Sequence record: PZ445447.1
DNA from: a phage
Strand: one strand, 5' to 3'
Length of the DNA: 64,000 nt
The position numbers and the translations under genes were made by a program. The notes under the pieces were generated by a model. It searched no databases. It was given only the letters and a program-made list of their open reading frames with translations, and was not told where the DNA came from. Below, piece by piece: positions 1,402-64,000 of the stretch (within the stretch, counting starts at the first letter, position 1; each line of letters opens with the position of its first letter).

Positions 1402-2672
1402 TGAGCGTTATTCAACAATTCGCTAACCCGATGAATCCGCGTGAAACTGTTTTACTGGCTCACGGCATGATTAAACGCGTCAGCATCAAGCCTATCAAAG
1501 GTGCTGATCCTACAACAGGTATTAAAACCACTGTGTGGCAAGGTAAGAAAATTGAGTCCAGCCACACCATCTCTTTACTGATTTCTGAACTGGATTCCTC
1601 TGATAACCTGCTTCAAGGTGGTGAAGAAGTCTGGATCAGCATGGGTGATAAACTGCTTAAACCGGGTCATCAAGACTCTGTCTCTGTTAAGATTGATGAC
1701 AAGTGGGAAACCGTAACGCCAGGATGGATCGTAAATATCCCTTTGAAGGCAAACGAGCATAACGGTAAGACCTACTACAAGGGCTCACTGGCTAAGATGG
1801 TTAAGCTGGGTGCAGGAGAGGCTCCAGCAGCGACTCAGCAGCAAAAACAGCAACAAGGTGCACAATCACAAGGCCAGAAGCAGAAACCTCAGCAGAATGC
1901 CAATCAGGACGTTTTACGCATCTATGGCGATGTGACTCAGATTGTTGGCAACGTGGTTACTGTTAATGACCACAAGATTGGCGAAGGTGCTATGGTTGTC
2001 ACTGATGAGCAGCTTAAAGACCTGGTGGTAGGTGGTCGTGTTGCAGCCATTGTTGACAAAGACACCGGAAACATTATCAGTGGTTTCAAAGCCTACCCAC
2101 CTAAGGCAGAGAACGGCACTCAAGGCTCTGGTGGCAAGCGTAAATCCTCTTACGACCCTATTGGTGTGGAGACGGGGCATAGCATCAATGCGTTGCAGAT
2201 CATCCTGGATCGCGGGTTTAAGGTGGACGACCCACTAGGCGTGGCTAAAACACTGCACGTAGTCACCATTGAGCTTAAGAAAGAGTATGCTCAAGCCACC
2301 AACCGAACTGAAGATGAGGTAGGTGCCAGTGTCGGTAATGCGGTGTTGAACGCTTGTCGCCGTATTGACAAGAAAACGAAAGTTGATGATTTTGCAGTGG
2401 CAATTACTGCAGAAGCAAAAGATGTCTTGACTAATCTGGCTGAGCCGTTGTACGATTGGATCAAGAACGGTGCTGGGTCCACTGACCATCAAGAACCTCA
2501 AGCTGCCAAACAGGAAGCTGCTTCACAGCAAAATACTGTAGACGCTCCTCCTGTAAATGACGAGGAAGATGACCCAATGGATCAGAATCCAGCACAGTAT
2601 GACTTCTGTGATGACATACCTTTCGCTCCGGTGGGTTTGCAATATGGCAAAAGTAGAATCCACGCATTGTAA
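1401..2672 (+). CDS. putative ssDNA-binding-like protein with SSB-tail-like DDIPF motif
   Basis: 423 aa; Gln-rich linker, acidic C-terminal region containing D-F-x-DDIPF 16 aa before the stop (bacterial SSB tails end ...DDDIPF); N-terminal OB-fold not verified. Confidence 0.45.
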
Positions 2673-3267
2673 GAGGTGCATCAAGTGTGGAGAGGTGAAA
2701 AACCTCTCCGAGTTCTACAAACATCCAAAGATGTCTGACGGTCATCTTAATAAGTGCAAAGAGTGTTGCAAGAAGGCCAGCAGGGAGGCTGACCAATTTT
2801 CCCACGACTCTTCAGAAAAAGGTGTGATCCGCGTGTTGTACAAGACTCAAAAGTGCAACAGTAAGAAGAGAGGTCACCCACCTCCGACTTACACCAAAAA
2901 AGAGTTTAAGGAGTGGCTATACCTAAACGGTTACAAAGAGTTGTATGATCAATGGGTAGCCAGCGGATACGACAAAAGGAAAAAGCCTTCTTGTGACAGG
3001 ATAGATGATTTCAAAGGGTACTCTTTTGATAATATCCGTTTAACGACTTGGGGAGAAAATAAAGACAAGCAGACAGAGGATATTCTGTTACATAGAAGCA
3101 CCAGCGGTAGACGGTGCAAAAATGTAAGGAGGTTGGACATGAATGGTAACGTTCTTAAAGAATGGGTATCCCACAATTCTTGCCGAAGAGAAACAGGGAT
3201 ATGTGTTGATTACTACATTCATGAAAAAATTCCAGCTCCCGATGGATACCTCTATGAATACTTCTAA
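2644..3267 (+). CDS. zinc-ribbon protein, possibly homing-endonuclease-related DNA-binding protein
   Basis: ATG at 2644 chosen over longer track ORF; N-terminal C-x2-C...F...DG...CKEC block paralogous to N-terminus of the Endo VII-like ORF at 63303; no catalytic motif recognised. Confidence 0.4.
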
Positions 3268-3282
3268 CATTTAGTTAACATA

Positions 3283-34856: not shown

Positions 34857-34919
34857 ACTGTACCTCCTAGCTCACTGTATGTCAATAATATGCCACATCC
34901 TTGTGGCTTTTGTCAAGTA

Positions 34920-36128
34920 TCAGCAACCACAACTTCCGTAGTGCTTAACCCGTTCTATAACTTCCGCTTGCTTACCTTTATTGTAAGGACGGGAGTTTGG
35001 ACTAGACAGGTACCCGGATACACGTCTGATCACACTGATCGTTCCCTCTTCATGGTTTCCACACTCTGGGCATACGAATCCCTTAGCTGTTGCACTGAAC
35101 TCACCAGAGAAACCACACTTAAGACATTTATCCACAGGCTGGTTGATACCAAAATACATAATGTGTTTATATCCGAAATCAACAAGAGCTTCCAAAGCAT
35201 CTAAGTTGTTTTTCAGATTTGGTGTCTCTACGTATCCGATGTTGCCACCAGAGGATATCATAGCAAAACCTTCTTCATACTCCCACTTATCAAAAGGAGA
35301 GCTATTGATCCATACTGGCTGATGGAAACTGTTGGTGAGATATTCATGCTCGTGCTTCAACACTTCAGGATATTCACGATCCAGACAGGTTGCAGCTTTA
35401 TAGCATAGACTCTCAGAAGGGGTGCCGTACAAACTAAACGCTAGTCTACTTTTCTTCTTGTATCGCTCACAAGCATCTCTCATGTGCTGAAGTATTCCAA
35501 GAGCTAAAGCCTTGTCACCCTCTCTGCCCAAAATCTGACAGGTTTCATACACACCAATATACCCAATACTGATGGAAGCGTACCCGTCATAGAAGAGTTT
35601 ATCAATACTCTCTTCAGGATCCAGGCGAGCAAGAGCGCCTTCACACCACATGATAGGGTTCTGCCCTGCCTTAGTGCCTTTCAGACGGTTAACCCTTACA
35701 AGGTGAGCTTCATATGCCAAATCCAGATACTCGTCAAGAACGGAAAAGAAATCAACACCTTCCGTCTTAGCTTTTGCCGCAATCATTGGCAGGTTAAGAC
35801 TAACAACACCCAAGTTGAATCTGCCGAGGTATTTCTCCTCACCTGTTTCCAAGTCATTGTATTTGCTAAGAAAACTCCGGCAACCCATGCTCGTTACTTT
35901 ACCATCTGTCGAGCCTGTCACTTTACGATTTAGTGGAACAGAAACAAAGTCAGGATAAATCCGCTCTGCAGAGCATTCCAGAGCTAATCGTTTCAAATCA
36001 TAGTTAGGATCTCCAGGGTTCATGTTGACACCCTCTTCTAGGAAGAACAACACTTTAGGGAACACAGGTGTGATACGTTCTTCACCAAGACCCATTTTGT
36101 GGACTTTCAAGTAGTTTTTGGTAATCAT
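34920..36128 (-). CDS. nrdD: anaerobic ribonucleoside-triphosphate reductase, C-terminal part (exon 2 or split-gene half)
   Basis: C-terminal zinc ribbon CLKCG...CPECG followed by the glycyl-radical motif RRVSGYL; N-terminal boundary depends on the intron 3' splice site. Confidence 0.8.
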   Translation of the reverse strand: MITKNYLKVHKMGLGEERITPVFPKVLFFLEEGVNMNPGDPNYDLKRLALECSAERIYPDFVSVPLNRKVTGSTDGKVTSMGCRSFLSKYNDLETGEEKYLGRFNLGVVSLNLPMIAAKAKTEGVDFFSVLDEYLDLAYEAHLVRVNRLKGTKAGQNPIMWCEGALARLDPEESIDKLFYDGYASISIGYIGVYETCQILGREGDKALALGILQHMRDACERYKKKSRLAFSLYGTPSESLCYKAATCLDREYPEVLKHEHEYLTNSFHQPVWINSSPFDKWEYEEGFAMISSGGNIGYVETPNLKNNLDALEALVDFGYKHIMYFGINQPVDKCLKCGFSGEFSATAKGFVCPECGNHEEGTISVIRRVSGYLSSPNSRPYNKGKQAEVIERVKHYGSCGC

Positions 36129-36979
36129 TCTACCAAAGACTGAGGTGTCCAGACCTAAACTTAATGTGATGAATGGAGTCTGCTGTCTCCTCCCTGTGTT
36201 TCCACAGGGCCAGACTATCTCTTACTCTACTTCAATAAGATAATAACCCTTTATTGTGAGATGCTTACCTTCGGCATTTCCTTCGATAGCCCTATGAACG
36301 TTACCTACGTTCAAATTTAAGGCTTTTGCACAGGCATAGAGTGAAGGATATTCACCCACCAAGGTTTTACCTTTGTATGCCTGCACTTTCCTATAGCACT
36401 TACCTGGACAAAGTCCTGTTCGGAAAGCATGTCTCTTATTATCTTCCGGCAAAACCCACTCTAGGTTAGACGGATGATCATTCAATGTATTGCCATCTTT
36501 ATGATTCACTTCCCAGTTTTCAGGGTCTACTGGGACATCTGGCAAACAATACAAGGCAACAACCCTTGAGGTTTGGATTCGAATCTTTTTGCCTTTGTGG
36601 TTGAAAGAGTACATATAACGGCGTTTAACATGCTTGTTACCTTTTCCATAACCTCCCCACAATATTGGGTGCAGCATTCCACGTTTTCCGTATACGTTTC
36701 CAACCTCATCAATCACATAGTTTGATTCTTCACCATTAAGAATGATCTTTTTCATAGAGCCTCTCCATTTCGAAGTTAGCATTTCAACTAACCCCTACAC
36801 TACTTGGTTCAGAAATGTTTGTCAAGCATCTCTGCCTTTCGTTAGTCGTTACAACCGTTCCAACTCCTGTAAGAACTAGTCACGGGATTGGCATAGCTTT
36901 CGCCTTAGCGTTCCCCGTTAGCCGGATTTACCGACCCCTCTTATGAGGTTAGGAGAGTTTTACAACGGCCAGTTTGTTA
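36129..36979 (-). mobile_element. putative group I intron carrying a homing endonuclease gene, inserted in nrdD
   Basis: upstream reading frame stops immediately after ...NG (ggt|taa); exon end caacggU can pair with gccgttG 10 nt downstream (P1 with U.G at the splice site); GNRA-capped hairpin ccctgtg-gaaa-cacaggg near the 3' end; HNH ORF inside. Confidence 0.5.
36222..36782 (-). CDS. HNH homing endonuclease (intron-encoded)
   Basis: motif NHKDGNTLNDHPSNLEWV...EDN typical of phage HNH endonucleases; probable start at internal ATG (MKKIILNG) after ggagagg RBS. Confidence 0.7.
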   Translation of the reverse strand: MLTSKWRGSMKKIILNGEESNYVIDEVGNVYGKRGMLHPILWGGYGKGNKHVKRRYMYSFNHKGKKIRIQTSRVVALYCLPDVPVDPENWEVNHKDGNTLNDHPSNLEWVLPEDNKRHAFRTGLCPGKCYRKVQAYKGKTLVGEYPSLYACAKALNLNVGNVHRAIEGNAEGKHLTIKGYYLIEVE

Positions 36980-37840
36980 ACCGTTGACAGAAGTTAACGT
37001 ATTGATTTGATAGAGCAAAGTCTGCATGCTGTCAAATACGTCTTTATCTGTCATTTGCATTGCAACAGTCTCAGCATCTGGCAACCAATGTTCCTGGCAA
37101 AATTTAAGGTTCTTCTCATAGGTCGCTTCAGCATACTGTGCCAGATAATGATCAATATGGCTCATAGTCTGACCACCATATTGAGCACTAGCTACTGCAC
37201 TAGAGATTTGGCTAAGGATTGTTGTTGCAACCCCTATTGACTTCGGCTTACTGACATGGGCGTTACCAATGTTGAATCCGTTTTCCAACATATCTGGATA
37301 ATTTACCAAACAACAGTTTGTTAACGGACTGATCAAGTAGTCAAGATCATGCACATGGATGAAGCCCCTATTGTGCTCTTCTGAGACACGGTCTGGCAGG
37401 ATCTGTGTTGATGCAAGGTGTTTGCTAAGGATGCCTGCAAGCAGGTCACGATGAGTGTGTACATGATTGGTAGGCTTATTTGCGTTTTCTTTTGTAAATT
37501 CATCACAAGTTCGATCCAAGAAGCCACTAATATCTGCAAGCAGTTTTCCACCTGCCTCTCTGTTATTATCTCTTGTCTGTCTATACTGGATGTATTCTCT
37601 GGCTGCACATTTTAAACCCATATCCATAAGAGCGTCTTCAACAAGGATATGGATATTTTTTACAGAGATCGTGCACTGATCGGTTGGTAGATTGTTAGCA
37701 ACAACTTCATTAACCGCGCAGGCGATCCGGTAAGCTTCTTCTTCAGTATGTCCAGACTCAAGTAAGGCGGACTCTGCCGCCTTGATCACCTTAATTCCGT
37801 TATAGAACTCTTCTCTACCGTCCCGTTTTACAACTTTCAC
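36977..37840 (-). CDS. nrdD: anaerobic ribonucleoside-triphosphate reductase, N-terminal part (exon 1 or split-gene half)
   Basis: 287 aa beginning MKVVKRDGREEFYNG (ATP-cone-like N-terminus); continues class III RNR architecture with 34920..36128. Confidence 0.8.
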   Translation of the reverse strand: MKVVKRDGREEFYNGIKVIKAAESALLESGHTEEEAYRIACAVNEVVANNLPTDQCTISVKNIHILVEDALMDMGLKCAAREYIQYRQTRDNNREAGGKLLADISGFLDRTCDEFTKENANKPTNHVHTHRDLLAGILSKHLASTQILPDRVSEEHNRGFIHVHDLDYLISPLTNCCLVNYPDMLENGFNIGNAHVSKPKSIGVATTILSQISSAVASAQYGGQTMSHIDHYLAQYAEATYEKNLKFCQEHWLPDAETVAMQMTDKDVFDSMQTLLYQINTLTSVNG

Positions 37841-38115
37841 TTTTTCTCTCCAAAACCATTCTTAACAAAAGAGATGAAATCGTCGGCACCGCCTATATGG
37901 ACACTTTCAAGAGCGCTTTCTAAAAAGATCTGCGGCAACGTTCTGGGGACGATTGGACTACACTTCTCAATAAGCTCTTCTTTTGTGTAGCCCTCTCCAA
38001 GTGTCTTATATACAAAAGGTATACCTTTGCTGACTGCAAATTCTTTTGCTCTGACACAATGTGGGCAGTTATCCTTACCGTAGATGATGATGAAAAAAGA
38101 TTTTTCGCAGCTCAT
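37837..38115 (-). CDS. glutaredoxin-like redoxin (NrdH/NrdC-like)
   Basis: active-site CPHC in IIYGKDNCPHCVRAK; 92 aa; sits between nrdD and nrdB. Confidence 0.7.
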   Translation of the reverse strand: MSCEKSFFIIIYGKDNCPHCVRAKEFAVSKGIPFVYKTLGEGYTKEELIEKCSPIVPRTLPQIFLESALESVHIGGADDFISFVKNGFGEKK

Positions 38116-60742: not shown

Positions 60743-60817
60743 GCCCTGTTAGCTTAGTGGATAAAGCAGCGGCCTTCTAAGCCGTTGACACTGGTTCGAG
60801 TCCAGTACGGGGTGCCA
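60743..60817 (+). tRNA. tRNA-Arg (anticodon TCT)
   Basis: manual cloverleaf: acceptor gccctgt/acggggt, D-stem gctt/aagc, anticodon loop cttctaa, T-arm actgg-ttcgagt-ccagt, encoded CCA. Confidence 0.8.
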
Positions 60818-60821
60818 AATT

Positions 60822-60908
60822 GGGGAGTTATCCCGTAGAGGTAGCGGTGTAGACTGTAAATCTATTGTCATTGCGACTCGGGTGGTTCGACTCCACCACT
60901 CCCCACCA
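60822..60908 (+). tRNA. tRNA-Tyr (anticodon GTA), type II
   Basis: acceptor ggggagt/actcccc, anticodon loop ctgtaaa, long variable arm, T-arm ggtgg-ttcgact-ccacc, encoded CCA. Confidence 0.75.
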
Positions 60909-61022
60909 AATTTATATTTTTAGATGCATAAATAATACAGATAATGGCATTGATATTTATCGTCGTTTATACTAGTCACTAACTGCTCGAAAATCAGTGT
61001 CATTATCAGTATAATTTATAAA

Positions 61023-61113
61023 GGAGGGTAGGGAGCAATGGTGCTCAAGCGGTCTTGAAAACCGTCCCGTTGAGGATGACTCGATGATGGTTCGATTCCA
61101 TTACTCTCCGCCA
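61023..61113 (+). tRNA. tRNA-Ser (anticodon TGA), type II
   Basis: acceptor ggagggt/actctcc, anticodon arm gcggt-cttgaaa-accgt, long variable arm, T-loop ttcgatt, encoded CCA. Confidence 0.75.
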
Positions 61114-61211
61114 CATTGTTGACCTTGTAATTAAGCGAAAGCCGGAAGCAGAACCGGATTATCAAATGTTACAGTCGTCATCGCCGACTAGCAACATGGT
61201 CAACATACTGA

Positions 61212-61310
61212 GCTAGGTAAGCCCTTTGGCAAGGGCGAGGATTTTTAATCCTGAAAATAGACGAGGTAGTCGTTGAATACATAGGTGGTTCGATTCCATC
61301 ACCTAGCACC
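61212..61310 (+). tRNA. atypical tRNA-like gene (anticodon ambiguous, TTT if 7-nt loop)
   Basis: acceptor gctaggt/acctagc, D-arm gccc-tttggcaa-gggc and T-arm ggtgg-ttcgatt-ccatc are canonical, but anticodon stem is imperfect and 29 nt lie between anticodon arm and T-arm; 99 nt total. Confidence 0.4.
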
Positions 61311-61315
61311 TTTTT

Positions 61316-61391
61316 GCTGATGTAGCACAATCGGTAGTGCAATTGATTTGTAATCAATAGGTTGTAGGTTCAAGTCCTGCCATCAGCACCA
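61316..61391 (+). tRNA. tRNA-Thr (anticodon TGT)
   Basis: acceptor gctgatg/catcagc, D-stem gcac/gtgc, anticodon arm attga-tttgtaa-tcaat, T-loop ttcaagt, encoded CCA. Confidence 0.8.
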
Positions 61392-61392
61392 A

Positions 61393-61467
61393 GGCCCTGT
61401 AGCTGGAAGGTTCAAGCAAGCGACTCATAATCGCCAGACGGTGGTTCAATTCCACCCAGGGCCACCA
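61393..61467 (+). tRNA. tRNA with CAT anticodon (Met or lysidine-type Ile)
   Basis: acceptor ggccctg/cagggcc, anticodon loop ctcataa, T-arm ggtgg-ttcaatt-ccacc, encoded CCA; 3-bp D-stem and A.C at top of anticodon stem. Confidence 0.65.
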
Positions 61468-61478
61468 AATAGTAAATA

Positions 61479-61555
61479 CTCCGCGTAGCTCAGCTTGGTA
61501 GAGCGCCTGATTTGGGATCAGGAGGTCGAGTGTTCGAATCACTCCGTGGAGACCA
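61479..61555 (+). tRNA. tRNA-Pro (anticodon TGG)
   Basis: acceptor ctccgcg/cgtggag, D-arm gctc-agcttggta-gagc, anticodon arm cctga-tttggga-tcagg, T-loop ttcgaat, encoded CCA. Confidence 0.8.
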
Positions 61556-62659: not shown

Positions 62660-63087
62660 TGTCTAAGATTTACGGACCGTGTTCTGAAAAGCAGAAGATG
62701 ATCCTAGAAAACGATGCAGATATTTTGGTAATCGGCGGTGCCGCAGGGTCTGGCAAGTCGTTCCTCTTGCAATTGATGCCACTTAAAATTATTGATGACC
62801 CCCACAGCTCTGTGGTTATGTTCCGAAGAACAACCCCACAGTTGGAAGGTGAGGGTGGATTATGGCCTAAAGCAGTAGCTATTTATAGTGATCTGCCTGA
62901 AAACATTAAGCCAAAGTTTAGAGAGAAGGATCATAAGTTCATTTTTCCACGGTTTGATCCGAACACTGGCAAGTGGGATAGAAGCAAAAAGGGAGCTGTT
63001 GTAAAATACTGCCACATGGAGTATGTACAAGATAAGCTTAACCATCAGGGGCTTGAGTACACCATGGTTTGCTTCGATGAGGGTTAA
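62659..63087 (+). CDS. terminase large subunit-like P-loop ATPase, N-terminal fragment (gene interrupted)
   Basis: Walker A ILVIGGAAGSGKSF and Walker B-like MVCFDEG; the frame stops immediately after the Walker B at 142 aa. Confidence 0.5.
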   Translation: MSKIYGPCSEKQKMILENDADILVIGGAAGSGKSFLLQLMPLKIIDDPHSSVVMFRRTTPQLEGEGGLWPKAVAIYSDLPENIKPKFREKDHKFIFPRFDPNTGKWDRSKKGAVVKYCHMEYVQDKLNHQGLEYTMVCFDEG

Positions 63088-64000
63088 TTTGTAGCTCTCG
63101 TAAAACCTCCCTAATTGCGGGGAAATCTTTATTATTGACACCACCAACCTGTCATGGTAACATGACAGAGGCTTCGAAGAGAGATCGAAGGTATGGTAAC
63201 AGTGTGTTAATTTAGATAATCCGCAGCGAAGCATCCGAGAGGATGAACGTTCAACGACTAGTCGAAAGACGTAGAATCAAGCGATTCGAAACGGGAGGGT
63301 GAATGTGTAATACTAAGAAATGTATGGATTGCCAAAGAGTTCTACCTATTGATGATTTCTTTTTATCATCTAAGAGCAAGGATGGATACTCAGGTACATG
63401 CAAGGAATGCTATATGTACTACAGGAAGGGTGGATCTCGTAAAAACAAAAATATGGTTAAGAGAGATGATGCAGCATTGTTTATTCAAGACTTGCTGAAG
63501 AAAGGTGAACTTTTTGAATGCAAATCTTGTCATGAAAGTATGCTCGCTGATAGTTTTTACACAAAACGTGACTATGGTAAAGTATATCTGGTTACGAACA
63601 GGTGTAAGATGTGTGAAAAGTTTTATCAGATTGAGAAGAAATTTCACATAACAAAAGATGAATACTATCGTCTACTCTCAGATCAAGATCATAAGTGTGC
63701 CATTTGTAGAATATCCCTTGATGAGTATAGGACGCAAGGGTATAGAGATTTCTTTTGTGTTGATCATGACCATAAAACTGGTGCTGTAAGAGGGTTGCTT
63801 TGTGATAAATGCAACAGAGCTTTAGGTTTCTTCCAAGAGGATGAGGAAACTATTCTTAGAGCGGCAGAGTATTTACACATTCATAAGATATAGTCTGGTC
63901 TGCATGGAGACATGCAGCTGCCTGAAAATGGCGGGGCAAGACTAGCGACCTTGCCCGAACATAAACGACACAATTCGAATGGGAGCAGATAGACTACCTG
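63088..64000 (+). mobile_element. putative intron or homing-endonuclease insertion (runs past window end)
   Basis: structured sequence with GNRA-capped hairpins (ctgtcatg-gtaa-catgacag; ctgcatg-gaga-catgcag) flanking an Endo VII-like endonuclease ORF right after the truncated terminase-like frame; 3' boundary not in window. Confidence 0.4.
63303..63893 (+). CDS. Endo VII-like HNH homing endonuclease with N-terminal zinc-ribbon domains
   Basis: C-terminal HKCAICRISLDEY...VDHDHKTGAVRGLLCDKCNRALGFF is a textbook endonuclease VII core; N-terminal CMDCQ...DG...CKEC zinc-ribbon repeats; gggagggtga RBS. Confidence 0.7.
   Translation: MCNTKKCMDCQRVLPIDDFFLSSKSKDGYSGTCKECYMYYRKGGSRKNKNMVKRDDAALFIQDLLKKGELFECKSCHESMLADSFYTKRDYGKVYLVTNRCKMCEKFYQIEKKFHITKDEYYRLLSDQDHKCAICRISLDEYRTQGYRDFFCVDHDHKTGAVRGLLCDKCNRALGFFQEDEETILRAAEYLHIHKI

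Follow-up and report, generated by a model that had tools for sequence, protein, structure and literature searches.

A probable mobile group I intron of the sunY/td type, with an HNH endonuclease gene in its P8 loop, in nrdD of a Vequintavirus

Introduction

Ribonucleotide reductase genes are the most frequently interrupted genes of phages (PMC3653736). One such case is nrdD of T4, whose intron (sunY) carries I-TevII, a GIY-YIG endonuclease placed downstream of P9, and is inserted at GAGU/AUGAAG (here and below, a slash within a sequence marks an insertion site or a splice junction). Within the Vequintavirinae, terminase introns have been described in rV5 (PMC3606486), and Pectobacterium phage CB7 harbours introns in terL, the DNA polymerase gene, nrdA and nrdB, the splicing of which was demonstrated by RT-PCR (PMC7344957). 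These introns share with the one analysed here the phage subfamily, HNH-type endonucleases and a location in essential genes; neither paper describes an intron in nrdD. A literature search for a Vequintavirus nrdD intron returned only the rV5 terminase introns, the CB7 introns and a note in the methods of the BASEL paper, and no description of such an intron.

Two other systems are relevant for comparison. In Aeromonas phage Aeh1, an endonuclease gene, mobE, likewise lies between two halves of a ribonucleotide reductase gene, nrdA, and the halves are translated separately. In Bacillus phage SPO1, the DNA polymerase intron, which resides in another host gene and another phage group, is likewise a group I intron with its endonuclease gene, that of I-HmuI, in the P8 loop.

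In this study, we analysed the nrdD locus of a phage sequence (record PZ445447.1; the window, hereafter, is the whole analysed stretch of 64,000 nucleotides). Over region 34900–37900, it shows 100% identity to the rV5-like Vequintavirus Escherichia phage MaxBurger (MZ501093), after which we name the intron. An earlier note, made from the sequence alone, had read the interruption of nrdD as a putative group I intron with an HNH endonuclease gene. An exact 797-nt insertion, a U·G pair at the 5' splice site, a terminal G, a core shared with T4, covariation and a GenBank join all speak for this reading, and the insert is very probably a mobile group I intron of the T4 sunY/td type (subgroup IA, with P7.1 and P7.2), harbouring the HNH gene in the loop of P8. 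Its boundaries, its fold, its presence/absence polymorphism and purifying selection are shown here.

The nrdD locus and the boundaries of the insertion

The genes of the region lie on the minus strand in the order nrdA, nrdB, glutaredoxin, nrdD, nrdG and a PhoH-like gene, and the features of nrdD and its insert are listed in Table 1. The upstream nrdD frame opens with GTG 37840, in overlap with the stop codon of the glutaredoxin gene, and codes for an N-terminal ATP-cone and a barrel that align to PDB entries 9d3x and 1h78. It reads up to ...LTSVNG, the last codon being GGU (Gly, 36982–36980), and is ended at once by TAA (36979–36977), which is part of the 5' end of the intron (UAACAA). The zinc ribbon and the glycyl-radical motif RVSGY are encoded in exon 2, inside the downstream ORF 36128..34920. 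That the frame stops at 36977 after ...TSVNG and resumes in this ORF, as the earlier note had described, is directly visible in the ORF list and the sequence.

With regard to the start of the gene, the GenBank nrdD CDS of MaxBurger begins at Met72 (37627). The N-terminal ATP-cone encoded by the ORF from GTG 37840 (37627–37840, minus strand) aligns to 9d3x from residue 1, and several related NrdD entries have a length of 707 residues. Judging from these sequences, the gene probably begins 71 codons upstream of the annotated MaxBurger start.

The frame of the downstream ORF is open upstream of its ATG, where it reads QTPFITLSLGLDTSVFGR (18 codons, 36182–36129), exon 2 beginning at 36182, 54 nt upstream of that ATG. 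Joining U36980 to C36182 yields a 707-aa NrdD with the junction ...TSVNG/QTPFITLSLGLDTSVFGRM..., in which ...NTLTSVNG/QTPFITLSLGLDTS... aligns gap-free to ...NTLFSSNG QTPFVTITFGTGTD... of T4 NrdD (1h78); the second solved NrdD also aligns without gaps across the spliced junction. At the nucleotide level, a 600-nt query of joined exons was recovered as one 600-nt piece in many relatives, for example in rV5 at 98.5% identity, whereas the same query matched MaxBurger in two pieces, 797 nt apart. The ungapped alignments and the two MaxBurger pieces therefore place the intron at 36979..36183, with ...GACAG as its 3' end and G36183 as its terminal G. The spliced protein, counted from the start codon chosen by the depositors, corresponds residue for residue to GenBank entry QXV82698.1, and the MaxBurger nrdD CDS is given in that record as a two-piece join. 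In a general statement, the BASEL paper reports that intron boundaries were placed by comparison of genomes (PMC8594841).

The alignment of the spliced product with uninterrupted NrdD proteins, which the earlier note had proposed as a check, located the exact junction (NG/QTPF, gap-free) and also corrected the proposed extent of the insertion. The interruption itself stands, but it comprises 797 nt rather than the 851-nt gap between the two ORFs (36979..36129), positions 36182..36129 being exon. Furthermore, one 3' splice site considered in that note, at the G of the ATG (36126), lies 57 nt too far downstream and can be rejected because its use would remove 19 conserved residues (QTPFITLSLGLDTSVFGRM) that are present in T4 NrdD and in every intronless allele. 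A shift of both boundaries by one base upstream (intron UUAAC...GACA, 36980–36184, giving a spliced codon GGG like that of rV5) was also tried, and was rejected because both the U·G pair and the terminal G would be lost.

Since inteins and other interruptions are known in phage ribonucleotide reductase genes, we also considered that the insert might be an intein, a group II intron or a translational bypass element. The TAA that directly follows the exon 1 frame makes an in-frame intein impossible, neither a reverse transcriptase ORF nor a group II match in Rfam was found, and a length of 797 nt far exceeds the known bypass gaps. The probability of any of these three readings is negligible.

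Table 1. Features of the interrupted nrdD gene, in window coordinates
Feature	Coordinates	Strand	Description
nrdD exon 1	36980..37840	-	287 codons; from the ORF list and the sequence
nrdD exon 2	34920..36182	-	420 codons and stop; first codons CAG ACU CCA (QTP...)
Probable group I intron	36183..36979	-	797 nt; exact insertion relative to intronless alleles
HNH homing endonuclease gene, I-HmuI-like (likely start)	36222..36755	-	177 aa; in the P8 loop
P1	36963..36986	-	exon CAACGGU (36986-36980) with internal guide GCCGUUG (36969-36963); U·G at the splice site
P3, 5' strand	36952..36957	-	CUCUCC; pairs with GGAGAG 36766-36761
Two hairpins, P3.1/P3.2-like	36922..36948	-	between P3 and J3/4; CCUC-AUAA-GAGG, GG, UCGG-UAAAU-CCGG
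P4-P5 domain	36882..36918	-	ACGGGG with UCCCGU around GAAA-capped P5
P6/P6a hairpin	36854..36881	-	from the nine-intron alignment
J6/7 and P7, 5' strand	36843..36853	-	UGUAAC and GACUA; GACUA pairs with UAGUC 36217-36213
P7.1	36842-36799	-	subgroup IA peripheral helix; covaries
P7.2	36795-36772	-	subgroup IA peripheral helix; covaries
P3, 3' strand	36761..36766	-	GGAGAG; doubles as Shine-Dalgarno of the HNH ORF
P8	36760-36754 and 36230-36224	-	GCUCUAU with GUAGAGU; HNH gene in the loop
J8/7 and P7, 3' strand	36213..36223	-	AAGAGA and UAGUC; agrees with Rfam consensus AAGAUAUAGUC
P9	36209-36192	-	CCCUGUG-GAAA-CACAGGG; GAAA-capped 7-bp hairpin
3' tail	to 36183	-	AGGAGACAG after P9; last base is the terminal G

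Distribution among Vequintavirus genomes

The stretch was present in 119 Vequintavirus records, 28 of which carry the HNH-bearing intron and 14 an ORF-less intron of 257 nt at the same insertion site, while about 77 are uninterrupted there. The element is thus present or absent at a fixed site in related phages. The junction codon is GGT in all sampled intron-bearing alleles and so provides the 5' splice site with its required U; the junction reads GGG/CAA in all six of the sampled intronless alleles. Synonymous differences are concentrated around the insertion site, at distances of up to about 60 nt, most clearly in the AlexBoehm lineage, a pattern that co-conversion during homing would leave. 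When the ORF-less intron was compared by BLAST with phage genomes, only the two Vequintavirus lineages were recovered, together with a 50-nt P4-P5 match in Bacillus phage S4-2.

These data bear on the alternative raised in the earlier note, in which nrdD has been divided by a free-standing endonuclease and yields two polypeptides; these would be translated separately and reassemble, as for mobE and nrdA of Aeh1. Both halves of nrdD indeed appear as ORFs, the downstream one beginning with ATG 36128, and split ribonucleotide reductase genes of this kind have been discussed for phages. Nevertheless, the two ORFs are not complete halves, as 18 conserved codons lie between the in-frame stop and the first ATG and have no start of their own; in these codons, which align colinearly with T4 NrdD, all differences between lineages are synonymous. 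In addition, the 14 relatives with the ORF-less intron are interrupted at the same place in the absence of an endonuclease gene, and the non-coding flanks of the HNH ORF form a covarying group I fold (see below), which sets the MaxBurger locus apart from that of Aeh1. On account of the startless conserved codons, the ORF-less genomes and the ribozyme-like flanks, we reject the free-standing endonuclease as extremely improbable and retain the group I intron.

In other respects, 19 records labelled 'Campylobacter phage' (MG0656xx, host C. jejuni, several of them UNVERIFIED) match the nrdD region at 90% identity or more, and one of the phages so labelled, A12a, is filed under Vequintavirus. The C. 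jejuni host label of these 19 records looks doubtful.

Fold of the intron

With the Rfam model RF00028, the window intron scored 27.8 bits (E = 7.6e-5), a match driven by J8/7-P7'-P9, and the ORF-less AlexBoehm intron 29.8 bits (E = 6.5e-6) with the whole model covered. These 28–30 bits compare with a gathering score of 50 and with 105 bits for the T4 nrdD intron, used as a control; the gathering threshold is a property of the model and not of the ribozyme. Applied with gathering thresholds to the whole window, the Rfam scan reported tRNAs only. Since the scores remained below the gathering cut-off, the structure was derived by comparison, and support beyond this cut-off came from E-value scans, the T4 control and covariation.

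Nine introns were aligned, namely, those of MaxBurger and AlexBoehm, five from IMG/VR contigs, T4 sunY and the second nrdD intron of JEP1. They were split into 47 segments, each decomposition being verified against its source, and padded, and MAFFT kept the columns unchanged. Bacillus phage S4-2 was left out because neither its 5' end nor its P7.2 could be placed reliably. In this alignment, which was fitted by hand to the proposed structure and favours it, although the helices sit between invariant anchors, 98.1% of the cells in 12 helices are standard pairs (71.5% in shuffles), both sides have changed in 45 of 70 pairs (26.4 in shuffles), and the covariation score amounts to 0.606, compared with 0.165 in shuffles and at most 0.087 with slid partners. 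The helices from P3 to P9 are all intact and free of mismatches, and P3, P7.1, P7.2, P8 and P9 each occur with several pair types. Of the nrdD intron itself, only two close lineages exist; taken alone, they display compensatory changes in P1, P3, P9 and both extra hairpins. Furthermore, the ORF-less intron has a folding z-score of -4.0.

The U·G pair at the 5' splice site is invariant in all nine introns and the other pairs of P1 covary, AAACGGU with GCCGUUU in AlexBoehm being a compensatory change. Both this P1 helix and a GNRA-capped hairpin near the 3' end had been picked out in the earlier note, and the latter is P9, with its GAAA cap and seven base pairs (36209–36192). In P3, both sides change in five of six pairs across the nine introns, with zero mismatches. 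A candidate P10 is formed by CUG (36972–36970) with CAG of exon 2, and is weak (2–3 bp).

The MaxBurger intron shares with T4 sunY both the host gene and the conserved stretch in which it lies, but not the insertion site, that of T4 being 32 nt upstream. In both, P1 is directly followed by UAAAA-P3, P2 is absent, and P7.1 and P7.2 occur later. The layout around P3, P4, J6/7-P7, P7.1, P7.2, P3', P8 and J8/7-P7' is that of T4 sunY, with long identical stretches, including J6/7-P7, GUAGG, CGAAA and J8/7. The core segments A..GACUA, AAGA.AUAGUC, GUAGG and CGAAA are invariant and shared with T4 sunY, and so is, in nine of nine introns, the segment formed by J6/7 and the 5' strand of P7; the P4-P5 core is common to T4 sunY and many phage introns. 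The two introns differ in the endonuclease, a GIY-YIG type downstream of P9 in T4 and an HNH type in the P8 loop in MaxBurger, and in the two extra hairpins that MaxBurger carries between P3 and J3/4. P7.1 is enlarged by an 8-bp hairpin in the HNH-bearing lineage.

P3.1 is a recognised optional pairing of group I introns (PMC3873408). A pattern scan of IMG/VR for the P4 core returned 120 loci, among which one close relative and four with the extra hairpins. In these four unrelated contigs, the two-hairpin arrangement shows covariation, and in place of an HNH gene in the P8 loop, the unrelated phage contigs with this module harbour GIY-YIG genes in the P6 loop. A pair of hairpins linked by a conserved GGGG(U) stretch, between the 5' strand of P3 and J3/4, could be the hallmark of a structural subclass among the sunY/td-like introns of phages, one so far undescribed as far as could be checked; we regard the assignment of the nrdD intron to such a subclass as possible but doubtful.

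At the other end of the intron, pairing between its 3' tail and exon 2 is possible across the 3' splice site (GGAG-ACAG/CAGA-CUCC, 36175–36190, minus strand). In AlexBoehm and contig L106, the corresponding version is GGGG-ACCG/CAAA-CCCC, with a compensatory change from A-U to G-C; with two states only, this is weak evidence. The pairing might hide or present the 3' splice site.

The sub-threshold RF00028 scores, the weak P10, and the deviation from the T4 sunY model caused by the extra hairpins and the enlarged P7.1 would also be compatible with a decayed group I intron, spliced inefficiently and leaving nrdD as a pseudogene or dependent on a helper protein. However, the core is intact and better conserved than the exons, as the first 174 nt of the intron are identical in MaxBurger and FV3 while their exons differ by about 5%. 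Moreover, the exons and the HNH ORF are under purifying selection, and the intron is retained in 42 isolates that grow on E. coli. Decay is for these reasons very unlikely, and a group I intron with a preserved core is the reading that we keep in what follows.

The HNH endonuclease gene

The gap between the nrdD ORFs was said in the earlier note to contain an HNH ORF with its own ribosome-binding site, and it does (36782/36755..36222). The encoded protein matches Pfam HNH_3 with 28.9 bits (cut-off 24.8) and PHROG 59 (E = 1e-25). Its only relative in the PDB is I-HmuI (1u3e), with a full-length alignment that covers residues 8–160. The two sequences are only weakly related (E = 7e-4), and the C-terminal NUMOD-like module gives a weak match to PF22083, its 18.3 bits lying below the cut-off of 27. 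Compared with FV3, the ORF shows 15 synonymous and two non-synonymous codon differences, which indicates purifying selection.

The MaxBurger HNH gene is annotated in GenBank from the upstream ATG 36782 (186 aa), and ATG 36755 is the annotated start in magaca, slur16, FV3 and JEP1, both the 177-aa and the 186-aa forms being found at NCBI. The sequence GGAGAGG lies 4 nt ahead of ATG 36755, and the start at 36755 is the likely one, rather than the annotated 36782.

A TTGACA-N17-TAGTGT sequence is found at about 36825–36797 (minus strand), in the lineage-specific extension of P7.1 just upstream of the HNH gene. This candidate was not reported by a consensus scan; as an internal sigma-70 promoter of the endonuclease gene it lacks support and is noted as a lead only.

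Other introns and tRNA genes

The terminase large subunit gene is also interrupted in the window, by another group I intron that follows GGT 63082–63084 (63085 to about 63950, plus strand; the 3' splice site is near the window end). It scores 48.7 bits with RF00028 (E = 3.8e-11) and carries an Endonuclease VII-type ORF (63303–63893). Its layout matches that of the nrdD intron: the Shine-Dalgarno sequence again falls in P3', the P8 loop holds the ORF, and the stop codon is fused to J8/7. Six tRNA genes are clustered at 60743–61552 (plus strand).

In JEP1, phita32 and 'Campylobacter phage C2', nrdD carries a second intron of about 750 nt between ...SMG and CRSF... (2528–3277 in JEP1, L003), which is absent from the window (equivalent site at about 35882/35881). 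Its core is td/sunY-like, an HNH ORF of its own occupies the P6 loop, and its RF00028 score is 32.9 bits. The site corresponds to the codon aligned with the cysteine of T4 MGCRSF, which we take to be the catalytic cysteine. Synonymous differences between lineages also cluster from +200 to +500 nt of exon 2 (about 35980–35680), around the site of this second intron (about +300), and may reflect earlier homing at that site, also in genomes without this intron today.

Proposed splicing, mobility and regulation

By analogy with the established group I mechanism, the nrdD pre-mRNA would fold so that the guide GCCGUUG pairs with the last exon bases, CAACGGU, and a free guanosine bound by P7 would attack after U36980. 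The freed exon end would then attack after the terminal G36183, joining ...GGU to CAG... and restoring the 707-aa NrdD. With regard to mobility, I-HmuI may serve as a model. In a mixed infection, the endonuclease would cut or nick intronless nrdD near AACGGG/CAAACUCC, within the predicted target ...GTCAACGGGCAAACTCCATTC..., and repair from the intron-bearing copy would carry over the intron along with some flanking exon sequence. The literature searched contained no RNA or biochemical evidence for splicing or endonuclease activity of any Vequintavirus nrdD intron.

The reading frame of the endonuclease is interlocked with the ribozyme. It has the 3' strand of P3 as its ribosome-binding site, begins within P8 (AUG 36755) and ends with a UAA that overlaps J8/7. 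An RNA engaged in either ribozyme folding or translation of the endonuclease should therefore be barred from the other, and this arrangement would provide a possible switch between the two.

Significance

The nrdD intron is an ordinary feature, and its junction is already annotated as spliced in a public record. It leaves our knowledge of group I introns and of homing unchanged, and it matters above all for annotation. Both gene callers and many GenBank records of related phages present nrdD as two fragments and an endonuclease, while the true product is a single 707-aa enzyme. In biological terms, the intron represents one more case of group I introns residing in the most conserved stretches of ribonucleotide reductase genes.
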